Positions 16,301 to 49,300 of a stretch of DNA of 64,000 nucleotides are shown here, in pieces (position 1 is the first letter of the stretch; each line of letters opens with the position of its first letter). Source of the stretch: Lama guanicoe (lineage: Eukaryota); contig MU053810.1 of the NCBI GenBank assembly GCA_013239625.1, positions 682,001 to 746,000 of the forward strand, given 5' to 3'. The notes under the pieces were generated by a model. That model made no database searches. It was not told the DNA's origin and was given only the letters and a program-made list of their open reading frames with translations. Position numbers and translations under genes: made by a program.

Positions 16301-19300
16301 TTGATTGTCCAGGTGCCGATGAGGTTATAAGACTTACTTTGAATCCCAGCACATGCTAGGGTAGCGGAATTCTCAAGTACAAGCTAGGAGACGGGGATTT
16401 TGGAAGTGATCCTTGGTCAAGTCATTTGAGAGCTTTTGTTCTTCTATTGTTGTTTTTTTAACTATTAAATCAGAATTATAATAGCTTTTGCTCCTTTCTC
16501 AGAATGTTGTTATGTGGAACAAATCAGGTAGGATAGTATTCTGGAAAAATAAGAAACACTAAACTAGTTCAGAGCACTACCATACATATTGTCATTGTTG
16601 TTCAGATAAGAGTTTCTAGACTGTCAGTTTGATTTTCTGATGAAAATGTAGTTCTGAGGTTAAATCCAATTATATTTATCTGAGGTGTTTGTTTACATTG
16701 TACTGTTGCACTAGGATTTTGTTGTATTCAGTGTTTCTTGAAATGTTTGCCTAAGTAGAGGGCTTATATTTGCAAATCATTTGAACTTTGTGACTGTTGA
16801 TAAAAAAAGAATAGTGATTGTATTAGAAATTTCACTGTATCAATGAATTTATAATAAAACGTGCAGTATATAGTTCATAACTGTAATACAAAAACTGAGC
16901 CTTAATATTTTTGCTTAAGTGAGCTCTTGGCATTTATTAGTTTTAAAACAACATTTCCTAGAGTGTATTCCTTATAATTTTTAAAACAACATTTCCTAGA
17001 GTGTATTCCTTATAACATTGATTTAATTTAACAAACTAGTAGTTAATATTTCAAAAGAGGGGTTTATATTGCCCCCAAAATTTGAGAAACATTGAATTAA
17101 GTTAATAATAAACAGGTTTCTTTATTTGAGAGCCTCTTTAAGGCTGATAAAATACATTGTTTCCCCAAATTATTTGACCATGAAACTGTTTTGCAAAGCA
17201 TGTCCTGGCACTGGTGTTCCACAGAGCTTATTTTGCCTTAACTTAAAATAGTTTGAATATAGCAAGAAATTATACTCACATTTATTTAAAAAATCTAGAG
17301 TGAATTCAGTCTTATTAAAATAACAATTTTTATCACAGATTTCAAAATGATATAATTATCTAAGCAGTGTCTCTTTTCTCTTAATTTGTAGGTGCGAAAA
17401 AAGGACCAGATCAATATTGAAACAAAGAACAAAACTGTTCGTTTTATTGGAGAACTTACTAAGTTTAAGATGTTCACAAAAAATGATACACTGCATTGTT
17501 TAAAGGTTAGTTCTGAATCATTTGAAATATTTTTAATAGAGTTAAAGTTTTAGTTATAAATGCTGGAAAAATGAAATAAGATGTATTTAAGTAATCTAAA
17601 GGAAGACAAAAAATAAGTAAAAAAAGAACATTAAAGAGATGAGCAAAATAGAGAACAAATAAGATGGTAGATACAAACACAGCTGTAAAACTGAAAGTTT
17701 TTTTAACGCTGTAGTTGAAAGGAGTCACGTTATGAACAACAAACATACTAGTATATTTCTTTCTACGAATTACTAAACATATATAGGAAGTCTGTACATT
17801 TCTTTGACACAAATTCATTTCTGTAAGTTCCTTTTAGGGGAATAATCATAAACGTGTGCACAGGTTTATCTAGAAGGATGTTTGTCACACCATTGTTTAT
17901 AGTGGCAAGAAATTGTAAACAATTTGGACGTCCAGTAAATAAGAATCAGTTGAGTTTTAGTGTAGTTCGTATTATATAGCGTTATGTACCTTTTCTGTCA
18001 TGCCCTAGAAGGATAAACAAGGACATGGAAAATACTCCTGTTAGTCAAAAAAAACTAAGTTATTAAATTATTAAATGATATGTCTAAATTTGTTTTGGTT
18101 TAAAAAATGTGCACAGAAAAAGATTGGGAGGATAAATACTAAAATGTGGTAATGTGTTTGTAGATTTCACACAGCTATTTACACAATGTTAACTGTGTAT
18201 GTGGCATTTGTTTAAGTGCATAGCATCACCTAATAAATACAGCAAGGGCTTTAGTGTATTAGTTTCCATATATCTTTCCAAAAGGAAAGACATTAAATAT
18301 GTTGAAGTATTTAGATAAAGTTTTGTGGTTGAACACAGAAGATACCCAGTGATTAAACTTGGCCTGTAAAGTAGACTTTTTTTTGCAGTGACATTTTAAA
18401 ATTGTTGCACACATTAGATGTATAATATTTTTTTCTAACAGAATTGAAATGTGTCTTTTGGTTTTTCATCCCTGTTATTATTACAGATGCTTCTGTCAGA
18501 CTTTTCCCATCACCATATTGAAATGGCATGTACCCTGCTGGAAACATGTGGAAGATTTCTTTTCAGATCTCCAGAATCTCATCTGAGGACCAGTGTACTT
18601 CTGGTAAGGGCTTGAACATCCTTGCAAGAGCTTGAGGTGTTTTGTTTTGTTTGCTTGTATTTTTAATTTTTTTGGTCTTTTTTTGAGAGGAGGTGGTAAT
18701 TAGGTTTATTTATTTAATGGAGGTACTGAGGATTGAACCCAGGACTTTGTGCATGCTGAGCACACACTCTACCACTGAGCTGTACCCTACCCCCCAAGCT
18801 TGAGGTTCTTGATGTACTCCAGAGGTTACACATTTTGACCAGTGCCAGTTATTTTGCCCTGCCATCTAAAAATGTTTCTACCTAAACTAGAACTCCAGCC
18901 GTTTCTGGAGAGCTGTAGGAAGTTTTCTCATTTGGCTGCTGCTGAGTTCACACTATTGTAAGGCGGGATTAAGTTCAGCCCCAAATAATTTTTGGCAGAT
19001 TATGCAAGTGAACAGCTGCTCTAAATACTATTGCGTTAGAGCTGTCTTTACAGATATTCTTGGTATATTGTTACTGTGCCATAAGCACATAAATTATAAA
19101 GCTTAAAATTTTTAATTAAAAAAAACATAAAATATAAGCTTGAAAGATTAGTTTAGGGGAGACGACATTTAGCTAATTAGGGTGCCAAATGGCCATCAAG
19201 TTTATTAAACAATTAAGTTATTATGCTTATTGATAATATCCATGTGTTCGCTTGCAGCCTTGAGCGGGAGAGAGTGTGGTGGGGGTGAGAGTTGGTGTTA

Positions 19301-22300
19301 AAGGGAGCGCTGGGTCAGGAACCACCTCAGTGTTGCTTTTACAGAAGTGCTGATTATATCACTTTCTCCAGGTGCGCTGTTCTTTTAGAATCTAGTTGTA
19401 AGCTTGAATACTTCTCTGCCAATGATACTTAAAATCAAAACCATGGGAATTTATTTCTAATAAACAGAAATATTAATGTGAAGACCATCAAGTGAAATTG
19501 ATTTCCACATTCTCTCTATGCTGATTGATGTAACAGGCATTCCAAGTTCAAAATAAATTTTTTGACCTTTGACCTTTGTTATTTTGTTTTTTAATGGAAG
19601 TATAGTCAATATACAATGTTTTAATTTATGATGTACAGCATAGTGATTCATTTATATATATATATTTATTTCTTTTCATACTCTTTTTCATTATAGGCTA
19701 TTATGAGGTATTGAATATAGTTCCCTGTGCTATATACAGTAGGACTTGTTGTTTGTCTGTCTTACATGTAGTAGTTAATATCTGCAAATCCTGAGCTTCC
19801 AAATTTATCCTTCCCCACTCCTTTTCCCCTCTGGTAACCATAAGTTTGTTTTCTCCAAGTTCAGATTTTTATTGTAAAACTCTTCCTCCTCTAACTCAAG
19901 CTGGTGAGGTTAAATGAGACCCTGCGTATGAAAACGTAATACAGATGCCAGGAATGCTCAGTTTTTTTTTTAAAAGAAAACTATATTTTATTTATAATAG
20001 TGAACTCTCTAATTTATTCACTCGGGAAAGTTTACTGGCCGTGGTGGTGTGGCTGCACATTGCATTGCTGAAGACCAGGGTCTTTCCTGCCCAACTGGTT
20101 TTCTTGGCTCAGTGGATCTTTCCCTCTCTTATAGCAAAAGCAGCTAGCCTTTGTCATTGGGTTTGTTTTTTTTCGCTTTCTGGGTAGGAGCCTTGTTTAT
20201 CTATCATCTAATGGTTTTGGGCTCCTCCTGTGTGTTAGGCGCTGAGTTCTGCAGGGATGTTGCTGCTGTTTGGGAGGGACAGTACAGAGAAATGAAACAC
20301 AGCTGCATCCTCAAAGTGGTCCGTATTGAATGCTAATTCTAATGCAGTGTTGTAAGTGCTTAAACAGAGGTTTGTAGAGGCTGTGATGGGCTCGGGAGGG
20401 AGTACTTAAACCAGACGGAATGAGTCAGGAAAGCTCTTCCCTAACAGCTTCACAGTATTCACTGAGCGCAGACCCTTCTGTCAGACCCTTCAGATATAAA
20501 CGTGAAAAAGATATCCCTGCCCTCATGGAGCTTACAGTTCAATAACCCAGACAGATGAGTAAATAGACTATTGGAATACATGGGGAGGACACGCAGCAGA
20601 GCAGTGGGGGTGAGCATCGGGTGTAATGTGTAGAGGAGATGCTTAATTCAGTCTTGGTGTGTCAGGAAGGGTTTCCTGGGGAAAATGGTGTTTGTTTTAT
20701 AGACTAGCCTGAGTCTTAAAGGCAGAGAAGAGAGACACATTGACTCGAGTGGCCATGGATAAGACTAGAGAGGCAGGCACACACTAGATTACACGTGAGG
20801 AGCCCTGAGCGCCATGCTAAGAAACTAGGGTTTTCCCCTGATAAGCAATGAGTATGTTGAAGGATTTTAAGCAAATAGGTATAATTAGATTCATGTTTTT
20901 AGAAAGATCAGTGTGGAGGAGATACTTGAGGTGGCTGAGGCCAGATGGAAAAGGCTGTTTTCAAAACCTAGGGGGAAAGCAGTGAAGAAAAGGTAAGGGT
21001 GAGAGGCATGGGGAATGATAACTGGCTGTAGGAAGAATTTTAGGAAATAGAACTGATGAGACTTGGTGGTGAGATATAAGGGATGAGGAAGAGAAAGTGC
21101 CCTCAAGTAAAACCCAAGATTCTGACGTGGACATCTGAGCAGATGCCAGAGATGAGGGAATAGGGGGAGGAAAGAGGTGATGAGTTTGGTTTGACACACG
21201 TGGATGCTTACAGGATAATCTAAAATATGTCCCTATTTGTTTGGGAACACATGTAACCTTCTAACTGAATTGCATTTAAAATTATTCTAAGCTAATGCTA
21301 AAATTAGTTGGTGTGTTTGTTGGGGGAAATGATTCTAAAATAGTCCAAATAACAGGTTGAAACTAATGTTGACTTAAAGCTGCATTACGTGTGTACTGGT
21401 GATAAGTAACGCATTATGTTTTGTTCAAAGAGCTTACACAACGTGGGCATTTTCTCCAGCCCTGTTCAATATGGAGCTGTTCTCTCTTTTTGAAAGCGTC
21501 ACCGTTTATTCACAAATTCATGTATAAATAATTGGAAGCCTCCCATGTGCTAGGCCAGGTACTATCTTAGGTGCTGGGTTTACAGCAGTGAAAATGCTGC
21601 AGCCCTTGGCCTGGCTGGGCTTACATACCCAGCCGTGTTTACAAGACGGGGAGTCGTGTCTCCGCCCGCCGCCCCAGTCAGGCGCCCGCCGCCCCAGTCA
21701 GGCACCCACCTGAAACTCGTCAGTGGTTTCCCTGTTCATGCTTAAAACCCAGCGTTTGTCCCACGGTCTGCAGAGTCTGTTGTCAGCTCGCGCTCCCCGC
21801 CCCTTAGCGCTGATCTTGCACCTTTCCAGTGGCACCTGTCTGGCCTTCATTCGTTCCTGTAGTGGCTCCCCCGCGCCCGCTGCTGCCCTCCCCACCCAAA
21901 GGATTTTCCGGTCCAAAATGTCAGTGGTGCTGAGGCTGAGAAACCTGAAGTGGGTGATGACTGAGTTGACACGTGCTTTTAACCACCTCCTGTAAGCTGA
22001 TGCTGAGGGCTTGGGTGTTCTGTAGAGATGCCCTGGGTTTACCTGGAGCGACACTGGATGGCACGGGCTCTGAGGATGAATTTATTCTCAGCTGATGTAT
22101 GTGGAACAGCCAGAGGCGTTCACCCCTTCGTTTGTATTCTCAGTCCTTAATTTCAGTCACTCATATACCAGCCTTGTTTTACTTGGAGTTCATGTATTTG
22201 GTAGAGTCATAATTTTGCATAAAGTTACATTTTTAGCAAAGTTCTCTGAGTATTTTATTGGACAAGGCCTAAGACCAGGCAGTCATGGACTAAAAGTTTT

Positions 22301-25300: not shown

Positions 25301-28300
25301 ACTTTGCCTTTTCTCAAACACAGTACTGTTCTTTAATGGAAACCTGCTGTTTGTGTGTCTGTCTGTTTCTCTTCCGCCTTTAGGTTAACCAACCTAAATT
25401 TAATCAGAGACGTATCAGCAGTGCCAAATTCTTAGGAGAGCTGTATAATTACCGAATGGTGGAATCGGCTGTGATTTTTAGAACGCTTTATTCTTTTACT
25501 TCGTTTGGTGTTAACTCTGACGGGAGCCCAAGTTCCCTGGACCCTCCCGAGCACCTTTTCAGGATTAGACTAGTGTGCACTGTTTTGGATACCTGCGGCC
25601 AGTACTTCGACAGAGGTTCCAGTAAAAGAAAACTCGATTGCTTCCTTGTGTATTTTCAGGTATATAAATTGAAGTATGCAGTGGGGCATCATTGAATGCA
25701 TTGCTTGTGTTACAGAAATACTAGAGAAGAAATGCTGAAGCATTTATATATCATGCATAAGATATATTCATAGTTAGATTAATTGTTCCTGCAAGAATGC
25801 TTTAGAGATTTTAAAAATATATGATGAATTCTATCATATAAAGATTGTGATAATGTTTTAACTGTTATGAAGGGTAATTATTGATCATTAATTTTGAGAA
25901 TTATTTTGGTATAGTATAGATTATTTGGTATTTGGTACAGTATTATTATGAATTTAATTACTTGTAATATTTATCCATTTGATAACATTCTTCTCACTCA
26001 TCTGTGTTCTGGTTTTACATCTAAAGTTGTTGTTTCTAAATGATTTTTTTTTTAAGTAAAAACCTCCATGATTTTGGGGAAAATGTTATTTTTAATGCTG
26101 AAAGAATTATTTGTTCATTCATTGCTAAATTCTTGGATTCTGTGTTTCCTATCTTAATTTAGGTTGCTCATGTAAACTTGTGATTTAGGGCAAGTGCAGT
26201 ATAAATTAAATTCAGATACAAATATAGAGACATTTCTGCAACAGTTGGAGTTCCAAATGTTAGCTTGTGGGTTGGTTGTTTGAAATCGAATCACTATTTC
26301 CCATAAAATGCAATATTATATGTACTAATTAGGGGAACCATCTTACTGTTGAATTCTCCAGATGTTACTGAAATACAGTACCACTGGTAGCATGCAATTC
26401 TTTTTGATCATTCGTTTCTACATAATCTATTGTTAGTATTGTTTTCATTTATCCATTGTTGAAGAAAATAAATTTAAAACTGTAACCAGGTATCAAATAT
26501 ATATCCACGTACTAGCTGTTGCTAAGTAGGGGTAATTACTTGGCGAAGAGCTGTTTGTTAACTTTTTCTTACTACTGTACTTTTGCATTAGAGGACTGCT
26601 TGTTACTCCCTATTTTCTGAATTGGTGAGCCAAAAATGGGGAGGGGTTTTCCAGATTTGATCCCTGTTGCATGTAAGGACAGCCTTAAGCTCGACTCTGC
26701 CTGTATTGAAAACTACAATTTTGCTGCCAAATGTCAGCTGTAACTATCAGCATCCAAAGCAGAATCCCTTTCAGGAAAGTATTCTTATTTGCACTTCCTA
26801 TGACATTTTTGCAGATCCCTCAGGCAGAGTAAAGAGCCACTCAGAAATACGCAGAAGCAGAGGAGACAAAAGTATTTTCCACACTGACTAATAGGCAGGA
26901 ATGTGTAACAGGGATGTACCAAGGGCATGGGAGTGAGAAGTGAGTGAGGTCTGGGAGATGTGGTCAGTGTGTTGTGCCTGTAACAGAGAGTGTCCAGTTA
27001 AGTATCAGAAAGCAGATAGAAAGATTCACCTGCAGTGGTGCTTCTAAACTTCAGTGTGCATGCACATTGCCTGGGTATATTGTAAAATGCAGACTATGGT
27101 CTAGGGTGGGGGCCTAAGATTCTGTATGTCTAACAAGCTCCCAGTTCCCTTACTTTGAGTAGCAAGGACCTAGAAGAAACTGGAGAGGACGATTAAACAC
27201 CCAGAGCAACACTTGGTTATATGCAAGTAAATTCTTGGGTTGTGCTTTTTTAGTTAAGGTAAACTTGTGAAATAGATCGAAGGAACCAGGCCCGGAGAAG
27301 AGGAGGAGAGTATCTAAACAGTGCCATATACACAGTAGATGTTTAATAAATGCTTGTTGATTACTGATTTTTATGTATTCAGGAACCTGTCTTCAGATAC
27401 TTTAATTGACCCTTTAAAAAAAATCAAAGCAGGTAGTATAGAGAAAGTAATTAAAATTTATCAAAACCATGGCCTTGAATTAGGTTTTTTTGTTGCTATT
27501 GTTAAATATTTAAACCCTATTTGGGAGTAGAGTTTCTGTTTTCAGAACCTAAAAATTTGTTTGGTATTTTATTTATTTATAGTTTTTCCTTGCCTTTGTA
27601 AAAAGATTATGACCATTATAATAAAAAGTATATTTAAAGTCACCAAATGGCTTAGAAACTGCATGGATGGAGGGGAGTAAGTGGCCTAGGATCATTGCTA
27701 TTGACCACTAATAAAAGTGGTCGGTGTCTTGTACAACTCTAGCTTCCTTATCACGTATAAGTAGGTGATGTCCCAATACAGACTGTTATTTTAAAGTATT
27801 CTGTTACGAATTTCTTGTAGCTAAATTTATTTTTCATTTATTCTCAGCGTTATGTTTGGTGGAAGAAAAGTTTGGAGGTTTGGACGAAAGATCATCCATT
27901 TCCTGTTGACATAGATTACACGATCAGTGACAGCCTAGAACTGCTAAGACCGAAGATCAAACTGTGTAATTCTCTGGAAGAATCCATCAGGCAGGTACAC
28001 GCCTTGGAGCGAGAGTTCTTAATAAAACTGGGTAAGCAGTGAACTACAGAGAGAAGAATCGAGATGGTGTTTGGCAGATTGTTGTTAGAACTTGCTTTAT
28101 AATGTTTCTCGTCAGCATCTACTTCTGTATACTTTCTGTTTTTGATGCTGAGTGTCACGTAATAGTGTTAGGTGAGACCTGGGTAGCGCACTTCTTGGTT
28201 TCATTAAATAATCCCCAATTGGCCGAAAACAGTCACTAAGACCGAAGCAGACGATAGTGGGGGGGTTGTCTCGTTTCTAAGGACTAGAGAAAATGCAAGA

Positions 28301-34300: not shown

Positions 34301-37300
34301 GCATTCATAAGATAGATTCATAAACTGGATTTTTAAAAAGCTTCATTTAGAATGAAAGAAAAATGACCCGTAATTTAAAATTTCTACAGTTAAAAGTAAA
34401 AATCCTTAAATCTTTGTTTCTTTCAGCCCTGAAGTTCTGTAGCTGTTAATGAACATTTCATGTGATTTGACTACATAGCAAATAGCATTATTGTTAATTA
34501 AAAACGAAGGATTATGGGGGAGAGGGTATAGCTCAAGTGGCAGAGTACATGCGAGATCCTGGGTTCAATCCCCAATAGTACCTCCATTAAAAAAACAAAT
34601 TAAATATAAGTAAATAAACCTAATTACCTTCCTCCCCACCCCTGCAAAAAACTAAAAAAAACCCCACAAACAAATGATTGTGTAACAGGCAACATAAACA
34701 ATAATGTATGACTTCTGTAACAGGCTAGCATTTGTAGACAGTAGAAATATATGCACTTTTATGTTATTATTTTGCTACCATTTTTTCCCAGTTTTATTGA
34801 TACGACTGATACAACATTGTATTAAAGGTGTACATATGATTTGATACATACTTTATATATATATGGATATAGAAATGACTAACATAAGTTTCGTTAACAT
34901 CCATCACCTCACATAGTTGCAAGCGCTTTTTTCTTGTGATGAGAACTTTTACTATCTACTGTTTTAGCAAATTTCAAAAATATAATACAGTATTGTCAGC
35001 ACTGTCTCTTTCCAACCGGAGAATCCCCCTAAAGTAGACAAATAAATTGGTAAGAATTTAGAACTGGAATATGTTTTTACAAATTGACTTCTGTGTAATA
35101 GAAGGACATTATTATATCCTATAAATATTTGAGTAATTGCTATGTATTGTTTTTTCCTTTAAATGCATTTTTTCCCTTCTCAAAAGTGAACTTTATAATT
35201 TTAAGATTGTATCATTTAAAACTATTTCTTACTTTTCTAATTGCAAAGTGAGTATTATACACAATACATGTGTGTTTGCTAAGTGGAAAAACAAAACGTT
35301 CAGTAGGAAGACTCATGAGCCTTGTCTGGGCGGAGAAGTGAAAGAGCCTTGTCTGGGCGGTTTAATTTAAAGGAATGAAGTTGGACTAGTTGACTCTCCC
35401 ACTGGAGACCACCGTTTCCCATGACTGCTCTCCAAATACAGAGAGGAGAAAATTCTTAGAGAGAAGATGGGTTGATGATAATGTAGTAAGAGCAGTGTAG
35501 GAAGTTCTATACTTACCTCAGCTGAGAAAGAGCAGGGCTAAAGTCCAACTCTTCAGAAACATTGTACTCTTTTATCTTGGTCCTCAACTCTTTGAAGCTC
35601 CACTTTTGAAGTTACTCTTAGCACCTGACAACTAGAATATTTTCTCCTCAGTATCAGCTGTGTAAGTTAAAGGTAGCTTTAGAGACGAAGTAAGTGTTCT
35701 TCTGCCAAAATTCTAAATTTCCACAGGATTTATACAACTTAACAGAAAATGCAAGATGTATTATTGTCAAAGCAAAATAGTTATTTATTGAGCATGATCA
35801 CTGTATTCATACTTCATTTCACATGTATTCATTTCTCTTAGCACCCTATGAGTTAGGTGAGAAATAAGGCACAGGTAGGTTAATAATTAGCCCCAGGTCC
35901 CAGCAAGCCAACATTTGAACTTGGACAGTTAGATTTGTGCTGTGCTCCCTTCCTGCTTTCCTTAGCTCAGACTGTGTGGTCCATTGACTTCCTTACCCTG
36001 CAGGTTATAATGACTGTGTGCTGTGAGGTTAGGACAATGAGATTCTTGTTCAGCATTTTAATTTCAAAAGTTAATGCATTTTATTTTGCCTAAGCAATAT
36101 AAAAAATAAAGGGTGAGGGAGAAAGTTTAATGCATTTTAGCTTAGTTTTTGAAAAGGAAGAATCTTTTAAGTGTTAAGAGAGGATTAATTTTTTCTGGGG
36201 CCAATTTAAGAGCATTTCTATTGCAAATTTAGTTTTGAATTAGTGCCTTCTTAGCACAGCAGGCAGTGCGTCAGTCTCATAATTTTGAATTATAGAGTTA
36301 TGTCAAGAAAAGTTTATGCATTTGAAAAAAAGAAGTTAATGCATTTCTGTACTTTCCCCAAGTATTTCCACTTTAGAAATTCTAAAAGTTTTCACTGTCC
36401 ATATAGTAAGTAGTAATACACTGTTTGGATTTTTGAAATTAATTGCTGTGTATAGTAAAACTATTTTAACAAATTTTTAATCATTTGTTTTCTGTTAGGA
36501 ATTATTTCTCGTTCACTTTGCTTGGCATAATGAGAAGCATCTGGGTATAGTGTAGTCTTTTTTTTTTTTTTTTTTATTTTATTGAAATTAAGTGTATAGT
36601 AAAACTATTTTAACAAATTTTTAATCATTTGTTTTCTGTTAGGAATTATTTCTCGTTCACTTTGCTTGGCATAATGAGAAGCATCTGGGTATAGTGTAGT
36701 CTTTTCTTTTTTTTTTTACTGTCTAGCTCTTCCTGACAAAGCATGTGTCGTTGGGCAAGTCACTCAACTTCTCTGAGCCTTAAGTTTTTTCACATATGAA
36801 AATGAGGTCAGTAAAGCTTACCCTTCCTTCTTCAGAATTGGGTAGAGCCAACAGAATTATGTGAGAGCACCTTCCAGACTGAGGGGCTTTGTATAGCATA
36901 GTGCTTTATAAGATGTTGTGTCATTGCCTTCAGATGGTAATGGTGTTAAATTTGAACTATTTATCACTTTTCATTGCAGGGTTAGGTGGGTATTGAAGAA
37001 CTGCTATGAGAAAACCAGTCTTGAGTTAGTTGGGGAGGGGAAAATACAAAATGTTCAGGAAAGTCATTCCTTGTGAAATTTAAGGAAGAGTTTCTACAAA
37101 GGATCTTCCTATTATTAGGTCAGTGGAAGATAGCGAAATGGGTTTTCAGCTGCTGGTGTGTAGTAAGTGGTCCCGGCTGACTTCGCCCTACTGGTCTAGG
37201 CAGACTGCATGGAAGACTGAAACTTGAGAATAATGGACAATTTATACAGAAGTTTTAACATCTTTTTAGTAACATCTTTCAAAATGTTTTAATGTTTTGA

Positions 37301-40300
37301 ATGTTGAACAATTTCAGGAGGGTTCTGATAATGACGACGATGAAGGAGAGGAAGAAGAGGAAGAGAACACAGATTACCTCACGGATTCAAACAAGGAGAA
37401 TGAAACTGATGAAGAAAATACTGTACGTATGGCTGAAAATTTGGTTTTTGAAACTGCTTCATTTTCATAGTATTTCGATTTTAGTCACAGAAGCTTTGGT
37501 TTTTGTGATTATTGAAATAATATTTCTTTGGAGATTCATTTTCAATATGTTTTCCTAAGTGCTTTTCTTTATTAACAAGTTCTTTGAATATTTAATAATG
37601 TTCTATATTTTGTTCATTCATTGCTTGAGTTATGTTGAACAAGTTATCAATACAGAAGGCTCTGCCGTACAGAACACTATTAAAGTTAGAATTCTGGTCT
37701 GAATTCTCGTTTCTGTTTTGTTTTAATAAGGAGGTAATGATTAAAGGAGGTGGACTTAAACATGTACCTTGTGTAGAAGATGAGGACTTCATTCAAGCTC
37801 TGGATAAAATGATGCTAGAAAATCTTCAGGTATTAAATGTTGCTCTGTTCCAAAGTACTCAGTACAAAATATTGCCGCACATTTGATTCTGGTTAGAGGG
37901 TCTCTACTATCTAAGTATTTGCCTCTGTGGCAGCTTTTTCCTGATTCAGACACTTTGCAGTTGCCAGTGCTTCTTGCGTCCCACACCTTGATGTGCATGT
38001 TTCTTTAAACTAGAGTGAGGGAAAAATGTAGTAAGTTTAAGACTTGAAACAGAGTAATTTCAATGTATCAGCCTCCACCTTTTCTTTCTCAGGTCATATC
38101 CTGTTTCTAAGACCCCTTACTTGCAGTTTGTTTACAAGTCAAACTACAGAAGATAAATATTTGGGGAAATTTAATTTGGTAAATTTTTAAGCTTGGTTTA
38201 TAATTTGAATAACTTGTACATAAATTCTCGAGGATGATTGGTTATGTGATGTTTAAAAAATGTTGCTTAATGGTTCCTGATACTAAGATACTAGATTTTA
38301 TAAAAAGCCCCATCTTCCCAGTGATTCAGTAATCACATTTTATTATAGTTAAAACTAAAATTCCGTGGGCTGCGTACTTCTGCCCCGTACATAGCTGCTG
38401 TTACGCCCTGTGGTGACTGGAGAAGAGTGCCTTTGCTGGAACGGTGGGCAAAAGCCCCACGGAGGGGCTCAGTGGTGAACTGCGGACAGGGGGGAAGTGA
38501 AAACGCCAGACACAGGTTGAGCTGACTCTTGAGAAGTTTTGCTAGAAAGGGAAGAGAAATGAGGTGCAGCTAGAGAAGTCATAGTGAAGACTGGAGGGTT
38601 GTTTTTAAGGTAGAACCTAGGTATTATGGTGTATATGCCAGTGGAGTAATTCTTCGGAGAAGAAATACTGGATTTTACTGTCATTGATGCTACCAAGGCC
38701 AAAAGCTGTGATAATGTACAGATTAGCATTACAGATGTATTAGGCCAATTTGCATCTTCCTCCATACGTGAAAATTTCTTCATACATCTAGAAAGCTCTT
38801 AATTTATGAAATAAATCTTATCATTCAGGAGCACAAGTCATCAAATAAAACATGATCATTGTAATCCCTTTGAAGAGGTAATAAACCGTTTACTTCTTAA
38901 AGAACTGTTTCCTGTCAGAGGAGAGTCCAAAATAGACCTAGAACATGGCAGTTTCATCATGATGAAGTTAACACTTCAAATCAGTTGAGGGAAACTGCAT
39001 TATTCAACAAATGCCCAATGAAAATAAAACTGGATTTCTGTTTTATTTCCACACCAGAATAAATTGCAAATCTATCAGAGAATCTTAGGAACTGTGAAGA
39101 CCGTTGAGCCCGGCATTAAGCCTTTACCATTTCTCTTCACACAGTGCCGTCTCATGCCGTTGGTATTCCCATGTTGCAGTTAAAGAAGCAGGCCTGCAAA
39201 GACAAAAAACTTGCCCAAGGTGGAAGGCTAGCGAGGGGTGCAGTCTCTTATCAACCATTTGTTACATTGCTATCCAGCACAGAACGCCATAAAAACCTTA
39301 TAGAAATAACAAGCCAGGAAAAAAGTACCTGCAGCCTACACAGCACAGAGTTAAATACCTGTACTGTACCACAGAGATCTTACACACTAAGGAGAAAGAT
39401 GAATGACTCAGTTTGTTGCTGTTGGACAGAGCGATCACAGCCTGCTAACATGCACTGAGAAGCAAACAGCTGGGCCTTTATCAAATCGTCAGATCTTCAG
39501 GTTTAAAAATGGCAGTACCCTTTGTGGTTAAGTGTGGGTAAACATACAGGTTTTGTAAAAGTAAACCAGTGCAGCCTTTTTTAGGGAGGAATTTAGGAAG
39601 CCTGTCAGATGGGCTGCCATTTGATTAAAAACGCACCCTTAATAATACTCCGTCAAGTGCATGGAGTTAAATATATCACAGAGCTGTTACCTTGTAGTAG
39701 AAAAAAGCTGTCTGTGGATAGAGGAGCAATTCAATAAATAAGGACACACCGTTGTAATTAGCTCTGTATATTGTGAACTAGATTCCCAGGATACACAAAA
39801 AGAAGAAAAGCTTGTATGTTTAGTATAGAACAGTGTGCATCGTGGCTGCTCGTATTTGTATGTGTATATTGAATATGTTTATATGTGAATATATGCAAGA
39901 CAGTCTGAAAGGAGGTGACCCACTGTTAATAGTTGTTGCATCTTGGAGTCGGCAGAGGGAGGCAGCTGGAGGGATTGATATGGACACACTTAATAGTATA
40001 TTTTTGTATTAAAATCATTTTTGAAAATAATGTTAATTTGTAATCAGAAAGATAATTTACAAATCAAGATTTGTTTAACATGATTCTTTCAAATTTTAAG
40101 CAAAATGTCTTAGTAAATCTTATGAACCTGGGAGAACTTCAGGTAAATTCTAGCAAGTTGGAACTGAGAAATCAAAAACAATAAAACCTTACACTTTTAT
40201 TACCATTTTGCTTGATTTGCAAGACTCGCAAATATGGAACCTATATCAAAAGACTGTTTAAATAGTAGTAAAGCAGTTTTAACACCTGCATGGCCTTTCA

Positions 40301-43300
40301 GCATTACCTGCTTGGCTTTGGAGAGTCATGTTCAGCTCTTGTCTCATTTGTACTTCATTCATCAGACTAGAGCATTATTTGAGGTTCCCTGACTGCGTCC
40401 TTGCTTTTGCACGTGTTTTTCCCTCGCCTAAATCCCCTCCATATCCCCAGACTGCTCTTTCACTGTCTGCTTGGAAGAAGTCAGCTGAAGTCTTTAATGT
40501 TCTCAAGTGTCCCATCTTCATTCAGCCTTTTGTGAAATCTCAGCACCCACCCACCCTCAAACAGGCCCATGTAGTCCCTCCATCCCCAGCACACATTATG
40601 CATACCTCAGATGGCGCGTAATTATTATTTCTCTCCCGTACTGAACAAGTTTATGACTCTTTGAGGGTAGAAACTATCTTTTAATACTATTATCTCCAAG
40701 CCTAACACACAGTAAGTTATTGGTGAAGGTTTGTTCAAATAATTGGTTGATAGATCCAGTGTGAATGTTAAAAATAATTGGTATCAGCAAGCAGGAAGTT
40801 TATCTGAACATCAATAGATTCCATTCACTGTTAAATATGAACTGAGCACCTGCTGCGTGTGAAGCACTGCCGACTGAGAACATCAGGGAGAGTGTATACA
40901 GTCATCACCCCAGCAGTCGGGTGGGGGCTTCCCACAGACGAGCAGGCAGTCGTGGCCCTAGATAATCATGAAGGAAGATGTGTGCTGTGAGTGTGAATGA
41001 AAGGGCACAGTGCGTTCGAGGAGCGGGAATGTCATAGAGCCCACAGCACTGTGTGTGCGCACTTGGGAGAGGCTGGAGCGACATAGAAACAGGAGCCACA
41101 TCCCATTGTCCTTCCGAGGCACGTGTAAGGATCGGGAGGCGGGGACACCTGCGCTTTCAGAAAGATTACTCTGGCTCTGATGATTGTTCTAAAATACAAC
41201 ACTGAATGGATTGTTTGCAGTTTACACGTATCCACAGGTACTTGGAATATTTACATTCTTTTTCATTTCTGTCTTTAAGCAAACGGTTTTGTAAAAGTAA
41301 ACCAGTGTAGCCTTTTTTAGAGAGGAATTTAGGAAGCCTGTCAGATGGGCTGCCATTTGATTAAAAACGCACCCTTAATAATACTCCGTCAAGTGCATGG
41401 AGTTAAATATATCACAGAGCTGTTACCTTGTAGTAGAAAAAAGCTGTCTGTGGATAGAGGAGCAATTCAATAAATAAGGACACACCGTTGTAATTAGCTC
41501 TGTATATTGTGAACTAGATTCCCAGGATACACAAAAAGAAGAAAAGCTTGTATGTTTAGTATAGAACAGTGTGCATCGTGGCTGCTCGTATTTGTATGTG
41601 TATATTGAATATGTTTATATGTGAATATATGCAAGACAGTCTGAAAGGAGGTGACCCACTGTTAATAGTTGTTGCATCTTGGAGTCGGCAGAGGGAGGCA
41701 GCTGGAGGGATTGATATGGACACACTTAATAGTATATTTTTGTATTAAAATCATTTTTGAAAATAATGTTAATTTGTAATCAGAAAGATAATTTACAAAT
41801 CAAGATTTGTTTAACATGATTCTTTCAAATTTTAAGCAAAATGTCTTAGTAAATCATATGAACCTGAGAACTTCAAGTAAATTCTAGCAAGTTGGAACTG
41901 AGAAATCAAAAACAAAAAACCTTACACTTTTATTACCATTTTGCTTGATTTGCAAGACTTGCAAATATGGAACCTATATCAAAAGACTGTTTAAATAGTA
42001 GTAAAGCAGTTTTAACACCTGCATGGCCTTTCAGCATTACCTGCTTGGCTTTGGAGAGTCATGTTCAGCTCTTGTCTCATTTGTACTTCATTCATCAGAC
42101 TAGAGCATTATTTGAGGTTCCCTGACTGCGTCCTTGCTTTTGCACGTGTTTTTCCCCCGCCTAAATCCCCTCCATATCCCCAGACTGCTCTTTCACCGTC
42201 TGCTTGGAAGAAGTCAGCTGAAGTCTTAATGTTCTCAAGTGTCCCATCTTCATTCAGCCTTTTGTGAAATCTCAGCACCCACCCACCCTCAAACAGGCCC
42301 ATGTAGTCCCTCCATCCCCAGCACACATTATACATACCTCAGATGGCGCGTAATTATTACTCTCTTGGGAGCTAATTCTAGTATTAGGAGGCAGACGTAG
42401 GGAAATACATAATGTCAGATTGGGGACAATGCTGTGAAGGACAGTCAAGTGAGACGGGAGGGAATAAGGAGACTGGGGTGGGGAGGCTGTTGTGGGTGAG
42501 TGGTCAGGGGAGGCCTGGCCTCAGGAGTCCTCTGTGAGGGGAGGGATAGTGTGTTCCCTCCCTGCCAGTACAACCTCAAAGAGATGATGCCTACCTTAAT
42601 TTTTTACCTCTGCTTTGCCAGGTTATTTCTTTCTACTCGAAGAATCAGAGTTGTCCAGTATGCCATTATTTTGCTATAGTGCAAGTAAAGCTTCAGCTAT
42701 GAAAACTGTATACCAGTTAGAATCATGGAGTGGAGGGCTGGGGAGAAGGCTCTACATTCTGACTCATGTTGACATAGTTAACTCTGACTTAGATCCAGAG
42801 TACTGCTGTCCTTTTCAGACACTGTCTTCTTAGTTCCTTTTCAGTCAATGTGCCTTTCCTTCATCCCAGACTCCAGGGTTATCAAGTTTTTAGGACAAGA
42901 CAGTTCCACCCTCTCTCACTCTCAGGCCAGAGTTGAGCCCTGGCATTTCCCCTCTCCTCCCAGTCCCTAGAAAAATTAGGTTTGGGGTTTTGTTTTTGTT
43001 TTTTAAGTCAAGATCCTAAACTTGGTGTTGGGGTGAGATCTTTGTAAAACTGTTCTCTTCAGAGCACCTGAAACTGTACTTGGTTATTAAGTACATGTTC
43101 AACTCATAAACATTACTTGGAATTTTGGGAAATGTTCAGTTTTAAGAACATTATTTGAAGAAAAATCACTGGTATTTTGTGGTCTGAAAAAGAAAGTATA
43201 TTTTGTTCTGATTTTTATTTCATTATTTGACTTTTGGGTGTTGTCCCTTCTGGTACAACGGTTTTTCTAGAAATGTGAAGTGTGTAGCTTTATAGGAATT

Positions 43301-46300
43301 TTTAGTTCTTAAGTGAAAGATCTCTTTGTGCACCGTATTTGTGCCCAGAAATAACCTTCTGTACTAAGTAGGAAAATAAAAATTTACGCCAATGAAGTGA
43401 GTATTTGAAAAGAAAGGATAATACTGTTGATAATTTTTCTAAATTTAAGTATCATTTAAATCTAGATTTAAATGAATTTGAATAATGAAATAAAATGTTT
43501 TGATTATTAGAGCAAAGGTTTTAATGTAGTGGAACTATTAGGTAATGTTTTAAAGAGCTTTTTGATTGTTTTAAGCTAATGCACAATATATTTGTTACAA
43601 TTTAATACTAGTTAACAACTCATTTTTTGGAATTAATACTTTCGAAGTGGTTTGTTTCACGTATCTTGTGACTGCAGTAGTTGATACTTACCATCATAGT
43701 AACTTGGGATTATATGTATGTATATACATACATATTTTTATCAGTTTCAGTTTGTTACAAAGTAGCTTTAAAATACAACTGAAATCACCTTTATTGCCAT
43801 TATTGTGTTCTAGGAAATCTAGCATGAGTGACTTCAATCTTTTTGTCATTTAATTTGCTGTAAGACAGTGCCTCTCTTTTTTGAAGTATCTTAGCAGCTT
43901 TACGATTAAGGCACCTGGTGAAGAAATTCATCAAGAATTCATCCCTTTTGCTCTCTGTATTTATTTATTACTGTCTCTTTTCTGTTGTTTTTAAGTGTAT
44001 AATACTTGAGAACTTTTCCTTTTGTAAAACTTGTCTCAGAGCATAAGATGTGTTTTTGTTTCTTTGTTTTCTTTATAATCATTTCCCTGCAGAAGATCTA
44101 GAACTTTCTAAAAAAAATTATTAGTCTTGTAAACGAATGAATAAAAACCTACGTTTTCCACATTTTAATCAGATCATCATGAAATTTGCTTTATAATTTT
44201 TAATCCTGTTTCATTAGTATGATCAGTACCATTAGCCATTAGGCTTGTCAGTACTAAATATGAAGGACGTTTCAGGCGTCATGATCAGAGTAAGGGGAGG
44301 AAGCGGCCATCCTGTCTTATTGCTGAGTGTGTTAATGTGGTGACAGACAGAGCATCTTAAACTTGCAGCTTGTGACTTCCTGGTGATGAGTAAAGTATCT
44401 ACCTACACTTCTTACCCGGCTGCTTTGCTTGAGTATTTTGTAAAACAGTAGTATGTCACTGCCTCTGTATTTGCATATATTTACAGCTATTTGAAACCAG
44501 TCAGTAAAACCAATGAGAGGAAAACCAGCCAGCTGATTAAGAGCTTTATAACGTTGGGGCCTGTGATTCACATTAAGAAAGTCAGGCTTCCAGCTCTTTT
44601 TTTTAACCCTTAGCATCACAGATAGTCATCTTATTTGATACTAGGAACAGAGAATGACTTTAGCTGCCCTCTCAAAGCCTTAGGGATTTCTATTGAGACT
44701 GAATATTTCAGTATTGCCCAGAACACCTACCTGTAATAAAATAATAAAGCAATTGTGATATTAATAATAACAGCTAAAATTTACTGAGTTCTTACTGTAC
44801 TTCAGACATTGTTCTTTTATATGTAATCATATCTTTAAAATTAATGTATTAATTTATATAGCCATGTCTTTGTTGATTTAAACTGACAGGTTAAATGTTA
44901 CTTCGAGTATCTGCAACTTGGATACACCTGCTAGACTCCACAGTTACTCCTCTAGGGAAAGATTAGAAAGTTGCTTCAAGTCCTCATTCTGGAAATTGTT
45001 CTCATAGCTGTGGTCTTTCTCTCTGGAACTTTCATCTCTGTCTCTGGTGGCATATGATTTGACCCAGCTCTGTTCCCAGGGCCTGTTGAATGGAGCTCTT
45101 CTCTGCTGCTAGTTTGGTAGCAGCTGCATTTGGAGGCACAGGCGCAGCAGAGCGCTTGCTGCGTGGCCGGCCCTGGAAGTGAGGGGTTGCGGTACGAGTT
45201 ACCGTGACGTTTCGCAGTGACTGCTGCTTGGGAAGAGTGACTTTATGGTGAAGTTTTTGTTGCGTGTATTAGATCCATGTGTCTGAGCTGAACTTTTTCA
45301 TTTAGTTATTTTTGTGTGTGTCTTCCTGAATTTTGAAAAGCAAATGAAAATGTTTATTGCAGGAAGTGATGACCATTGTATTTAACTTTGTTTCACTTGT
45401 GTTTGTTAGTAGAAATAGAAACAGTTGGGGCAAGCCTCATTCCTGATACAAATTACTTACTACAGAGGCCTGGGGACAGGTGTACAGAGTAGTTAAGGAT
45501 GTCAGTTTCTGTCTGTTGGTTGTTAATCTCATTCTTGCAAAGAAGGTGATTTTTCAAAAACTGTCTTTTTGATTCTATTTTGCTAAATAAAATAGTTTTA
45601 TTTTCACAACGTGTAGGAAGTAATGAGGGAGACTGTGAGTCTGGATGTCAATAAATTATTTACATGCATTACTAATAGGTAATATTTATGAAATACCTAA
45701 TACCTGCTAGGCACTGACCTGTGCGCTTTACATATTTTATCTTGTTTAATTCTCACAACAGCCCTAAAGTTAGAATTGATACCCTCGTTTTACAGATGAG
45801 AAAAATAGTGTTCTTAAGTGATTTGCTGGTCATACCAGTAAATGATAGGGCTAAGGATTAAACTTTGTCTGACTACAAAAACCCATGTTCTTAACATCTT
45901 TGCAGCACTGCCTAGCAAGTATATATTTTATGAAAGAACTGATTGTGGAAAGGAAACTTGGGGAAGGGGCAGGAAAAAAAAGAGCATAGAATTCATGTGA
46001 AACAAGAAAAAATTGACCATCATCAGACCACATATCTTAGAATTTAGAAACAAATAGCCCACAGCCAGCAGTTTTTAAAGGAGATGTGGTTCAGGAGGAT
46101 GAGAAAGTGCTTTGTTAAAAGGCTGTGTTCAGAGACTTAAGAACAGGAAGGGGCACAGTTTGTGGAGAGAGTATGGAAAAAGCAACTATTTACTTTCCTT
46201 TTTATCAAGAAGAAAGATTTTAGTCTGAAGGGATAAATTAACGATTGGGTAAAATTAGATAGTATTAAAAGAGATTCATCTGCTTTAAATAAGTCGCAGT

Positions 46301-49300
46301 CTTCAGGCATAAGCAAATTACATCCTCAAGGACTGAAAGGACCTGTGTGTAATTGCAGATCAATTGTCATTAAACTCAGAAAAGTCCTACAGAATAGGAC
46401 AGCAGTCAAAAGATTCATAGTGGTCAAATCTTTTGTTTTTCAAGACCAGGGAAAAAATACATTCTGAAAACTATATTCCAGGAAACTTGATGTCAACTTT
46501 AAGCATAGTTCTAGATTGAGTTTAAAGACAGGTAATTTTAGTCATTAGGAAAATGAAAATTAAAACCAAAATGGATATATTAACTATATACTCACTAGAA
46601 TGCCTAAAATTGAGAAGACTGACCATATCAATATCAAGTGTTGGCAAGGGTATGAAGGAACTGGAATTCTCATATACTGCTAGTGGAATGCAAACTCCTG
46701 GAAAACAGTTGAGCAGTTTCTTAACCAATAAAACACATCAGATAGTCCCACCTTTTCCGTGCCTAGCATTTTTTCATTTAAGCAAAATGAAAACACACGT
46801 CCACACAGACAATTGTATGTGATTTATGACTGTATTTGTAATAACCCCAAAACTAGACGCACCCTGAATGCTGCCAGCAAGCGATCGGGTAAACAGATTA
46901 TGGTGTATTCACTCAGGGGGCTCTTTCTCTTTCCCAGCGTCACGGCTGTCTTCAGTAAGATGAAGGTCTGTTAATCCTGAAGGTGGACTAGATTTGTTCT
47001 GTATGGTTCAGAAGGGCAGAACTGGCTCCAGAGGGTAGAAACGAAAGGGTGCAGATTACAGCTTGCTGTATAAAAGCCTTTCTGACAATTACCCATATAT
47101 AATAGGGTCTACACAATGGAAAATGATCCCCTGTTGCTTAGATGCGTGCTACCGGACAGGGGACAGGAAAGAGGAGCGTCTGCTTTCCGTGGAGGTTGAA
47201 CTTGGCCTTCCACTTCCCATCCAGCCCTAATAGGTTGGTCTCTTGTAGAGTAACACTGTTATGTTTATGCCCTTAGACCGTCTTTATTGACTTACTAGGA
47301 AAGGAAAGATTATGATTTTCCTAAACTTGTTTAAATCTACTTATTTTTTTTCCCTCTTGATTTTCTCAAGCCATTTGTGACTTCTTTGTCATTTTTTTCT
47401 CAGTTTAAGATCCTTAATGTACCCATGTCTTCCCAACTTGCTGCAAATCACTGGAACCAGCAACAGGCAGAGCAAGAAGAGAGGATGAGAATGAAAAAGC
47501 TCACGCTAGATATCAATGAACGGCAAGAACAAGAAGATTATCAAGGTATCAGCTCGTTTCCAGGACGGAAGGGGGAAATCGCGATGCCCCTTGGGCTTTT
47601 AGAACATAGGATGTCAAAGGTGTTGTTCTCCACCTTTTCACGGCGTGTTTGTGTATATTTAGCCTGAGAGGCTGATTGTTTTTTACATCCCACTCTTCTC
47701 TCACTTACTTGTAAAAGAACACTAGTGGAAGTCTCATCACATTTTGCTAACTCCATAGTTCAGTTAGATTCCATCCTGTTAGAGCCATGTTTGCAGGTGA
47801 CACAAAGACCAATTTTTAGTTGCCTCGTGTTGCCAGTCAACTGTGAACAAATTAACTCAACAAATACCATCTCGTTTTGTCTGTTTGATAATTCTGGTCT
47901 TAAAGGCCCTCTGTTCCTTCAAATTTGAGGGTATATTCAAGTTAGGATTCCAGTTTTATGCAGACATACCCAGCACACTTGGCTTAACTGGAACTTTAAA
48001 TACAGAGGTCATGGACACCTCCTGAGCCAGCCCAGCCCTTCATATAGGGCTGTACTCAAAAACTGGAAGAGATTGCTGTGTAAATAAATAATTGGTTTTC
48101 TATCTTTAAGTCCCACTTCTAGAATACTCTCTTCCAGCTGACACTCGACATTCTTAATAACAAATAATGGTAGTTAACAGTCAGTGTAAGTGCTTACTGT
48201 GGGTCAGACACTTGAGTAGCTTTCAAAGCATTTAATCCTCACAATTCTGTGAGATCAGTGCCCATTATTATTTGCATCTTACACTTAGAGACACTGAACC
48301 GAAAGTCCCATGGCTAGTAGGTGGCAGAGCTGGGACTCGAGCCAGTACTGTCTGGCTGCCGTCCTGCCTGCTTCTTACACTGTTGACTGCCTCACAAGAC
48401 ACTTGGGTGGTGGCCGCACTGGCTGTAAGGGGGGCTTTGAGTGTTACGTGGCAGTCAAGAGCGTATCTCATCTCTAGATTGCTCTTTGGTACTTGTTCAT
48501 CGTTTCAATCTGTGCAATGGTTGCTGTTCCTCAGCCGGCTCCCTGAGAGACTGTCCTGGGCTCTGGCTTCTTGAGAGGAGTGCATTTACCAAGCGTAACC
48601 ACCTGTTCTGTTTGGCTCCTAATTCCAGAAATGCTGCAGTCTCTTGCCCAGCGCCCGGCTCCAGCAAACACCAATCGGGAGCGGCGGCCGCGTTACCAGC
48701 ATCCGAAGGGAGCGCCTAATGCAGATCTAATCTTTAAGACTGGTGGGAGGTAGGACCCTCTCTTGTTTCTCCCTTAGCCATTTTCTTCATCATGTCCGTG
48801 TGAATAACTTAGATAAGTATACTGGATTATACTTAATGATAAAGGCTGAATTAGCAAACTTAGAAAAGTTGTTGAGTTATAGATAGGTGAGAGAAGAAAA
48901 CCTTTTAGTACAATATTTACAGTTTTGGTTTTTGGGGTTTGTTTTTTTTGAATCTTGATTTCAGCCACACCATTCTTGGCTGTTGCTTTCTCTGAGTGGA
49001 GTTACTTGTATTTTTAATTTTTCTCTTTTGCCTTTATGGAGAGGACTAGTTTTAGATTCGTTTGAGAGAAATCAGAGGCTTTTTGTTGGGACCTCTCAAG
49101 CCACTGTGAAGTAATCGTGATGTTTACTAAAAGTCAAAACCCGTTTGCTAGTAAGACTTTCAGACGTGCAGGCTAGAGTTTGTTCTGGGGTATTTTGTTT
49201 GTCCGTTTTTGAGTTATAAAATGTCCTGCAGGGGTTCATGCCGGTTCTTCTTAAACGTGAGTTGCCTAATGTGAAATAATTAAAACTCTGTAAGGAATAT

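Follow-up and report, generated by a model that had tools for sequence, protein, structure and literature searches.

UPF2, a factor of nonsense-mediated mRNA decay (NMD), wraps the CH domain of UPF1 so that an alpha-helix lies against one face and a beta-hairpin against the opposite one, in the accounts given in PMC9891255 and PMC11162806, and the preliminary description of the DNA analyzed here was right in outline about this helix-and-hairpin grip. Heterotype false duplications and false losses are described as common in earlier vertebrate assemblies (PMC9516828, PMC9516821), with gaps between falsely duplicated pairs given as their usual hallmark (PMC9516828) and with structural or sequence errors reported for 26 to 60% of the genes of previous assemblies (PMC9516821). 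Both subjects meet in a stretch of 64,000 nucleotides of Lama guanicoe (assembly GCA_013239625.1, contig MU053810.1, positions 682,001 to 746,000), hereafter the window, which contains the 3′ half of UPF2 on its + strand and lacks the coding sequence of one exon of the UPF1-binding region.

The absent exon, termed exon k, was found intact on an unplaced (orphan) contig of the same assembly, C5645. Because it adjoins intron sequence that is 99.87% identical to the window there, the gap in the scaffold is regarded as an assembly fault. A false exon loss arising from misassembly of either of the kinds discussed below, as opposed to a biological loss, is very probable, and the misplacement of a haplotype contig is its most likely mechanism, held with moderate confidence. 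As judged from the contigs, the animal's UPF2 most likely has a normal UPF1-binding region, composed of helix, linker and hairpin.

Residues 615-1270 of canonical mammalian UPF2 (P0076, 1,272 amino acids) were placed by tblastn on successive exons at 10227-48750 of the window. The exons around the gap are as follows.

37318..37422, + strand: UPF2 exon i, encoding EGSDNDDDEGEEEEEENTDYLTDSNKENETDEENT, with an AG acceptor and a GT donor; identified by tblastn to P0076 and P0013
37731..37829, + strand: UPF2 exon j, 33 amino acids, EVMIKGGGLKHVPCVEDEDFIQALDKMMLENLQ, reading EVMIKGGG...MLENLQ and containing the UPF1-binding helix segment VPCVEDEDFIQALDKMMLENLQ
47404..47545, + strand: UPF2 exon l, FKILNVPMSSQLAANH...EDYQ (first residues FKILNVPMSSQL), with its acceptor AG at 47402-47403
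48629..48750, + strand: the next UPF2 coding exon, EMLQSLAQRPAPANTNRERRPRYQHPKGAPNADLIFKTGGR, identified by tblastn

Exon j is bordered by an acceptor AG at 37729-37730 and a donor GT at 37830-37831; its end and the start of exon l are both in phase 0. In the tblastn comparison exons j, l and m match canonical UPF2 at 100% identity. The structural reference used was the solved human UPF2 fragment bound to UPF1 (2wjv_D, 97 amino acids), which we take to be that of Clerici et al. 2009. Residues 12-33 of exon j correspond to residues 4-25 of this fragment (22/22 identical), and residues 1-16 of exon l to residues 82-97 (16/16 identical). The PF04050 (Upf2) profile, with a family cut-off of 29.8 bits, is matched at positions 15-34 by exon j (17.8 bits, below the cut-off by itself) and at positions 98-133 by exon l (42.7 bits), and positions 36-97 are uncovered when the window is taken alone.

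The interval between exons j and l (37830-47403) spans 9.6 kb, and residues 26-81 of 2wjv_D, 56 residues in all, have no counterpart in the window. Permissive tblastn (word size 2, E up to 10) with P0076, P0013 and P0005 found no match to these residues in any frame of the whole 64-kb window; the P0013 query carries exon k in frameshifted form, while the open reading frame (ORF) of P0005 runs from the end of the intron into exon k. No stop-to-stop ORF within the interval encodes the 56 residues, and there is no N anywhere across the window. The first 30 residues of P0005 match window positions 41202-41282 weakly (E 0.29), ending in ...FFFISVFKQ. Part of exon k is retained at this site (41262-41285), namely the polypyrimidine tract, the AG and the first bases. 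The DNA at the break has a normal acceptor, ...tttcatttctgtctttaag/CAAACG (the slash marks the splice boundary), and then continues as GTTTTGTAAAAGTAAACC.... As written in the scaffold, positions 41280-41295 following the retained acceptor read in frame CAA ACG GTT TTG TAA (QTVL-stop); splicing to this acceptor, were the join real, would lead to a premature stop and not to a clean in-frame skip.

These results bear on several statements of the preliminary description. It had given the boundaries of the interval, with coordinates 37830-47403 and phase 0, exactly as they emerged from splice-site inspection; it had found the intervening peptide nowhere between exons j and l, with which the permissive tblastn and the ORF check agree, and had put its length at about 56 amino acids, which is the number of residues from 26 to 81 of 2wjv_D. 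Its statement that a skip from exon j to exon l is in frame holds as well, exon k being 168 bases long. The exon can be called missing as far as its coding residues are concerned, but its acceptor and first five bases remain in the window.

The assembly from which the window derives (2,050,533,365 bases in 55,231 contigs, with the window at C1724:682001-746000) was searched with P0005. Besides exons l and m on C1724, this search matched C5645:994-1254(-) with an E value of 1.1e-34. C5645 is an unplaced contig of 1,962 bases without N. Bases 1-789 of its reverse complement correspond to window positions 40494-41282 with one mismatch and no gap, and from base 787 it reads CAA CGA AGT GGT GAA TCT GTT AAA GTG CAC ... 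as an open exon of 168 bases, preceded by an AG acceptor and ending in ...AAG CAG CAG/GTAAGA with a donor. At the break, C5645 (...CTTTAAG/CAACGAAGTGG...) can be compared with the window (...CTTTAAG/CAAACGGTTTTG...). The encoded peptide, QRSGESVKVHQLDVAIPLHLKSQLRKGPPLSGGEGETESADTMPFVMLTRKGNKQQ, aligns to residues 26-81 of 2wjv_D, exactly the hole left by the window, with 54 of the 56 residues identical, and it fills positions 36-97 of PF04050 (38.7 bits) between exons j and l. With exon k taken from C5645, exons j, k and l cover residues 4-97 of 2wjv_D without a gap, and only with the exon of the orphan contig is the PF04050 match unbroken.

At the two residues where exon k differs from human UPF2 (2WJV_D), serine stands in place of glycine and threonine in place of alanine, both within the stretch rich in glycine and acidic residues that separates helix and hairpin. 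Going by the sequence pattern, we take PFVMLTR of exon k to hold the first strand of the hairpin and FKILNVP of exon l to hold the second. Once the exon of C5645 is restored, the UPF1-binding region would be complete, and an altered interface or rewiring is not indicated.

Downstream of exon k, C5645 holds 1,008 bases of intron, the start of which resembles that of other mammals (VRICP..., P0122, P0123, P0130). A search with 1,003 of these 1,008 bases found no full match elsewhere in the assembly, and comparison of the 1,008 bases with the window gave only chance matches of at most 13 bases. The scaffold is thus short of at least 1,171 bases at position 41285, and a sequence of 1,075 bases, termed A′, stands there instead. 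The interval can be divided into the following blocks.

37830..39548, + strand: first part of the intron between exons j and k; 37336-39487 is also present on orphan contig C54735
39549..40627, + strand: block A, intronic sequence that is repeated as A′
40628..41279, + strand: block X, the authentic upstream intron flank of exon k, with a polypyrimidine tract and the AG at 41278-41279
41280..41285, + strand: exon k stub, CAA[A]CG, the first five exon bases and one extra A
41285..42359, + strand: block A′, a 1,075-base copy of A occupying the site of exon k and its downstream intron
42360..47403, + strand: block Y, the remaining intron up to exon l

The order in the interval is therefore exon j, intron, A, X, the five-base stub of exon k, A′, Y and exon l, the last G of the stub being at the same time the first base of A′. 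Blocks A and A′ form a direct repeat of 98-99% identity with a start-to-start spacing of 1732-1736 bases, and their homology ends sharply on both sides. In a base-by-base alignment, A′ differs from A by eight substitutions (seven transitions and one transversion) and three indel events comprising four bases; two of the indels remove one base of a TT pair and one removes two bases of GGG. Within the 2.05-Gb assembly, A has only three matches: A itself, A′ and a 134-base segment at the head of C5645. The first 134 bases of the reverse complement of C5645 are 100% identical to the tail of A′ (42226-42359), and A′ and C5645 share the single variant (G/A at 40600) that separates this segment from A. 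Block X does not differ at all between the scaffold and C5645 (0/655 differences, counted up to 41282). Its read-through resembles the flank preceding exon k in contigs of other mammals (P0005, P0123, P0124, P0133), and the acceptor flank of block Y resembles the read-through before exon l in another species (P0002). Block Y itself showed no homology to X or to the intron of C5645, with chance matches of at most 13 bases only.

Two other origins of this repeat were considered and set aside. Block A is not a dispersed repeat or a transposon inserted in the exon, given its three matches in the genome and the lack of any exon remainder after A′. An error-rich long-read gap fill is not favoured as the source of A′: since seven of the eight substitutions are transitions and the indels lie outside longer runs, the differences look like real variation.

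All 15 assembly matches to P0013 lie on C1724 or on the orphan contigs C5645, C54735 and C787; the assembly holds one UPF2 locus, and neither a paralog nor a retrocopy. Introns included, the identity of the orphan contigs to the window is mostly 98.5-99.9%. C54735 (2,152 bases) corresponds to window positions 39487-37336 with six mismatches and no gaps (99.72% identity) and comprises part of exon i, exon j and 1.66 kb of intron. Together, C54735 (37336-39487), A′ (equivalent to 39549-40627) and C5645 (from 40494 onward) tile the locus almost end to end, like contigs that would derive from a second haplotype. C787 (5,390 bases) is a mosaic of window positions 17661-21062 and 34720-36203, two parts lying 13.7 kb apart. 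It contains a 300-base back-step, by which 20497-20796 is present twice, and its 1.1-kb piece equivalent to 35114-36203 is only 93.5% identical to the window, with 45 gaps. This contig looks chimeric or badly resolved and the locus poorly assembled; because of its mosaic structure with the internal back-step, the assembly is considered unreliable at UPF2.

On the mechanism that we favour, the true order of the locus would be exon j, intron, A, X, exon k, at least 1 kb of further intron (Z), Y and exon l. The assembler would have retained two versions of block A, which is rich in variants and for that reason a spot where alleles would fail to merge, and A′ would be the contig of the other haplotype. 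The scaffolder would have placed A′ directly behind X, the position that belongs to C5645 with its exon k and Z; C5645 would have been left unplaced and both joins would have been closed without N. We infer that A′ is an allele rather than a paralog and that the two joins are artificial. Several observations weigh against this mechanism. Neither join contains N, although gaps usually mark falsely duplicated pairs. A and A′ differ by about 1.0%, with indels, or 3-7 times as much as the other orphan contigs differ from the scaffold (0.28% and 0.13%). C5645 terminates in unique sequence that does not lead back to Y; an overlap of its 3′ end with the window, sought by blastn-short with a word size of 7, gave only chance matches of at most 13 bases, and a single 9-mer of that end at 39541-39549 is to be seen against the approximately 12 such matches that we estimate to be expected by chance.

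The size of the A/A′ divergence gives some room to another kind of artefact. Since this divergence (8 substitutions and 3 indels in 1,078 bases) exceeds that of the orphan contigs from the scaffold (6/2152 and 1/789), A′ could be an older true paralog of A, a real intronic duplicate lying downstream of exon k in the intron between exons k and l, which we regard as rather unlikely. In that event exon k, Z and possibly further sequence would have been lost from the scaffold because the contigs were broken at the edge of the repeat by the near-identical blocks, a course of events to which we give a minor but real chance. The contig in the scaffold begins precisely where the repeat does, a kind of position at which contigs are prone to break, and A′ continues into Y and exon l without N, both of which are in keeping with such a duplicate. 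However, C5645, the head of which matches the tail of A′ at 100% identity, leads into X and not into Y; with only three matches to A, no contig of the assembly provides A′ with another left flank; and C54735, A′ and C5645 tile the locus as a single alternate haplotype would.

Should the scaffold instead represent a true haplotype, the animal would be heterozygous, with exon k and the adjacent intron replaced by a copy of A on one chromosome and with C5645 as the normal allele. We judge this improbable, even though the sequence is continuous at both joins without N, the left join has an overlap of one base (G) such as a repair junction could leave, and an orphan contig could be a second allele. 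A fresh rearrangement would have copied A exactly, and A′ differs at 11 places, whereas an old one is contradicted by the identity of X (0/655) on scaffold and C5645: if the join of X and A′ were as old as the A/A′ divergence (8/1078), the 655 bases of X should show about 4.9 differences, and none was observed (Poisson P(0) of about 0.008, by hand calculation). For a simple deletion, the breakpoint would have to coincide with the first base of a repeat that already existed. Furthermore, three orphan contigs of UPF2 point to general misassembly, and exon k is present in 126 of 130 proteins of relatives and is never skipped. To our knowledge, deletion of an exon in an essential, constrained gene of one sequenced animal is far rarer than an exon dropped from a draft assembly. 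Such a haplotype would yield either an in-frame UPF2 that is missing linker and first strand of the hairpin or a transcript in which a stop follows just past the retained acceptor. A real heterozygous allele, with a diverged copy of the nearby intron in place of exon k and 1 kb or more of intron, is quite improbable; if true, UPF2, an essential NMD factor, would have a naturally occurring allele that either is without linker and first hairpin strand or is itself a target of NMD by way of the retained acceptor. Still further down the scale, and in our view extremely unlikely, is an exon loss shared by the whole lineage (with a rewired UPF1-UPF2 interface) or a window that represents a relaxed UPF2 paralog. 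Five changes at otherwise invariant positions in two upstream exons could mean relaxed constraint, but the same assembly contains an intact exon k with canonical splice sites beside 99.87% identical sequence, exons j, l and m at its single UPF2 locus are 100% identical to the canonical protein, and two Camelus species keep exon k. Among the three readings that the preliminary description had offered, that of an assembly error is accordingly supported and the hairpin-less UPF2 is not; the paralog, too, is not supported, given the single locus. The preliminary description had also held that the appearance of the exon in the same animal would speak against a natural loss, and an intact exon is what C5645 carries.

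Sequencing runs and ORFs were also inspected. Among 24 runs, the 14 DNA-like ones hold 0.89-0.91 of the sampled words and six RNA or possibly-RNA runs hold 0.13-0.26, shares that do not bear on the joins. Four ATG-started ORFs (two spanning the join of X and A′, one spanning X and exon k on C5645, and one control spanning the sequence before A and A) were looked up as exact entries in the collection; none was present, including the ordinary control, which makes the result uninformative. A similarity search with a 44-residue ORF across the join of X and A′ gave no candidate and is likewise uninformative.

Comparison with other camelids, a check that the preliminary description had proposed, revealed an intact order of exons j, k and l in Camelus ferus and a frameshifted exon k in the dromedary. 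In Camelus ferus UPF2 (XP_032329434.1, P0172) the three exons are contiguous (...MLENLQ/QRSGESV...RKGTPLSGGEGETESADTMPFVMLTRKGNKQQ/FKILNVP), and its linker (PPLSGGEGE) shares a serine with exon k of C5645. None of the 120 other representatives listed of 296 matches has this serine, the best identity being 98%; the search with exon k of C5645 covered proteins of at least 99 residues, and the serine variant was found only by cluster look-up. Because the serine is specific to camelids and shared with Camelus ferus, the exon of C5645 is considered an authentic camelid exon. The Camelus dromedarius models KAB1253902.1 (P0013) and KAB1253901.1 (P0153) have exon k between exons j and l in frameshifted form, so that the shared serine is only deduced there from the frameshifted text. 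Exons i-j are written twice in tandem in the dromedary model; this duplication and the frameshifted exon k are an independent sign that assembly of this stretch is difficult in camelids. The first eight read-through residues of the intron between exons j and k (VLNVALFQ) are likewise common to the dromedary and the window.

The segment of exons i-j is redundant in two camelid assemblies (on C54735 here and in P0013), which may be due to haplotype retention or possibly to a real duplication.

Among 184 compared proteins, 130 contain the cores of both exon j and exon l, and 126 of these also contain that of exon k. The four without it are both frameshifted dromedary models, one from rat in which unrelated text stands at that place, and one from elephant shark in which the segment is shortened. 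None of the 130 proteins with both cores joins exon j directly to exon l. Two other models, P0056 of Crocodylus porosus (...DEENT/QRSGESV) and P0098 of Narcine bancroftii (...DEDNN/QRTGESV), join exon i straight to exon k and skip the 33-residue exon j, which encodes the UPF1-binding helix, either as an in-frame isoform or through a model error. This skip is the mirror image of the loss of exon k that the preliminary description had proposed.

Further upstream, the window differs from both Camelus models at six residues, which probably reflects a camelid lineage other than Camelus. In the exon at 27848-28033, which we take to belong to the third MIF4G region, four residues are changed. Within FPIDIDYMISDTLELL, V replaces I, T replaces M and S replaces T, and in VHDLEREF A replaces D. 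From sharks to mammals, I, M and T occupy the first three of these positions without exception in the 65 proteins among 120 that contain this segment; the fourth position is D or E in the 64 proteins that reach it and D in both Camelus models. The preceding exon (25384-25659) has a change of I to V in CTILDTCG (window 25582-25584). No second copy of exon 27848-28033 was found in the assembly. These upstream changes could be lineage-specific or could be sequence errors of the assembly.

Taken at face value, the scaffold would give a UPF2 model without part of its hairpin and a false story of rewired NMD in camelids. Gene models built on this assembly, and screens for gene or exon loss that use it, are wrong at this site unless unplaced contigs are searched, and the UPF2 stretch is misassembled in at least two camelid assemblies.

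The absence of the hairpin exon is almost certainly a known kind of assembly error and no real biological feature. The locus resembles the heterotype false duplications described by Ko et al. 2022 (PMC9516828), as characterized in that account, in having near-identical blocks on one scaffold that differ by transition-rich changes of single-nucleotide-polymorphism type, and in the additional near-identical orphan contigs of the same locus. It differs from that account in the absence of an N gap between the copies, and in that the misplaced copy displaced the exon-bearing contig and so led to a false loss instead of a false gain. With the false losses that Kim et al. 2022 (PMC9516821) describe for short-read assemblies, it shares a conserved exon that is off the main scaffold yet present in the DNA of the animal. 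The exons emphasized in that description are GC-rich 5′ exons, whereas the one displaced here is an internal 3′ exon of ordinary composition situated beside a local duplication.

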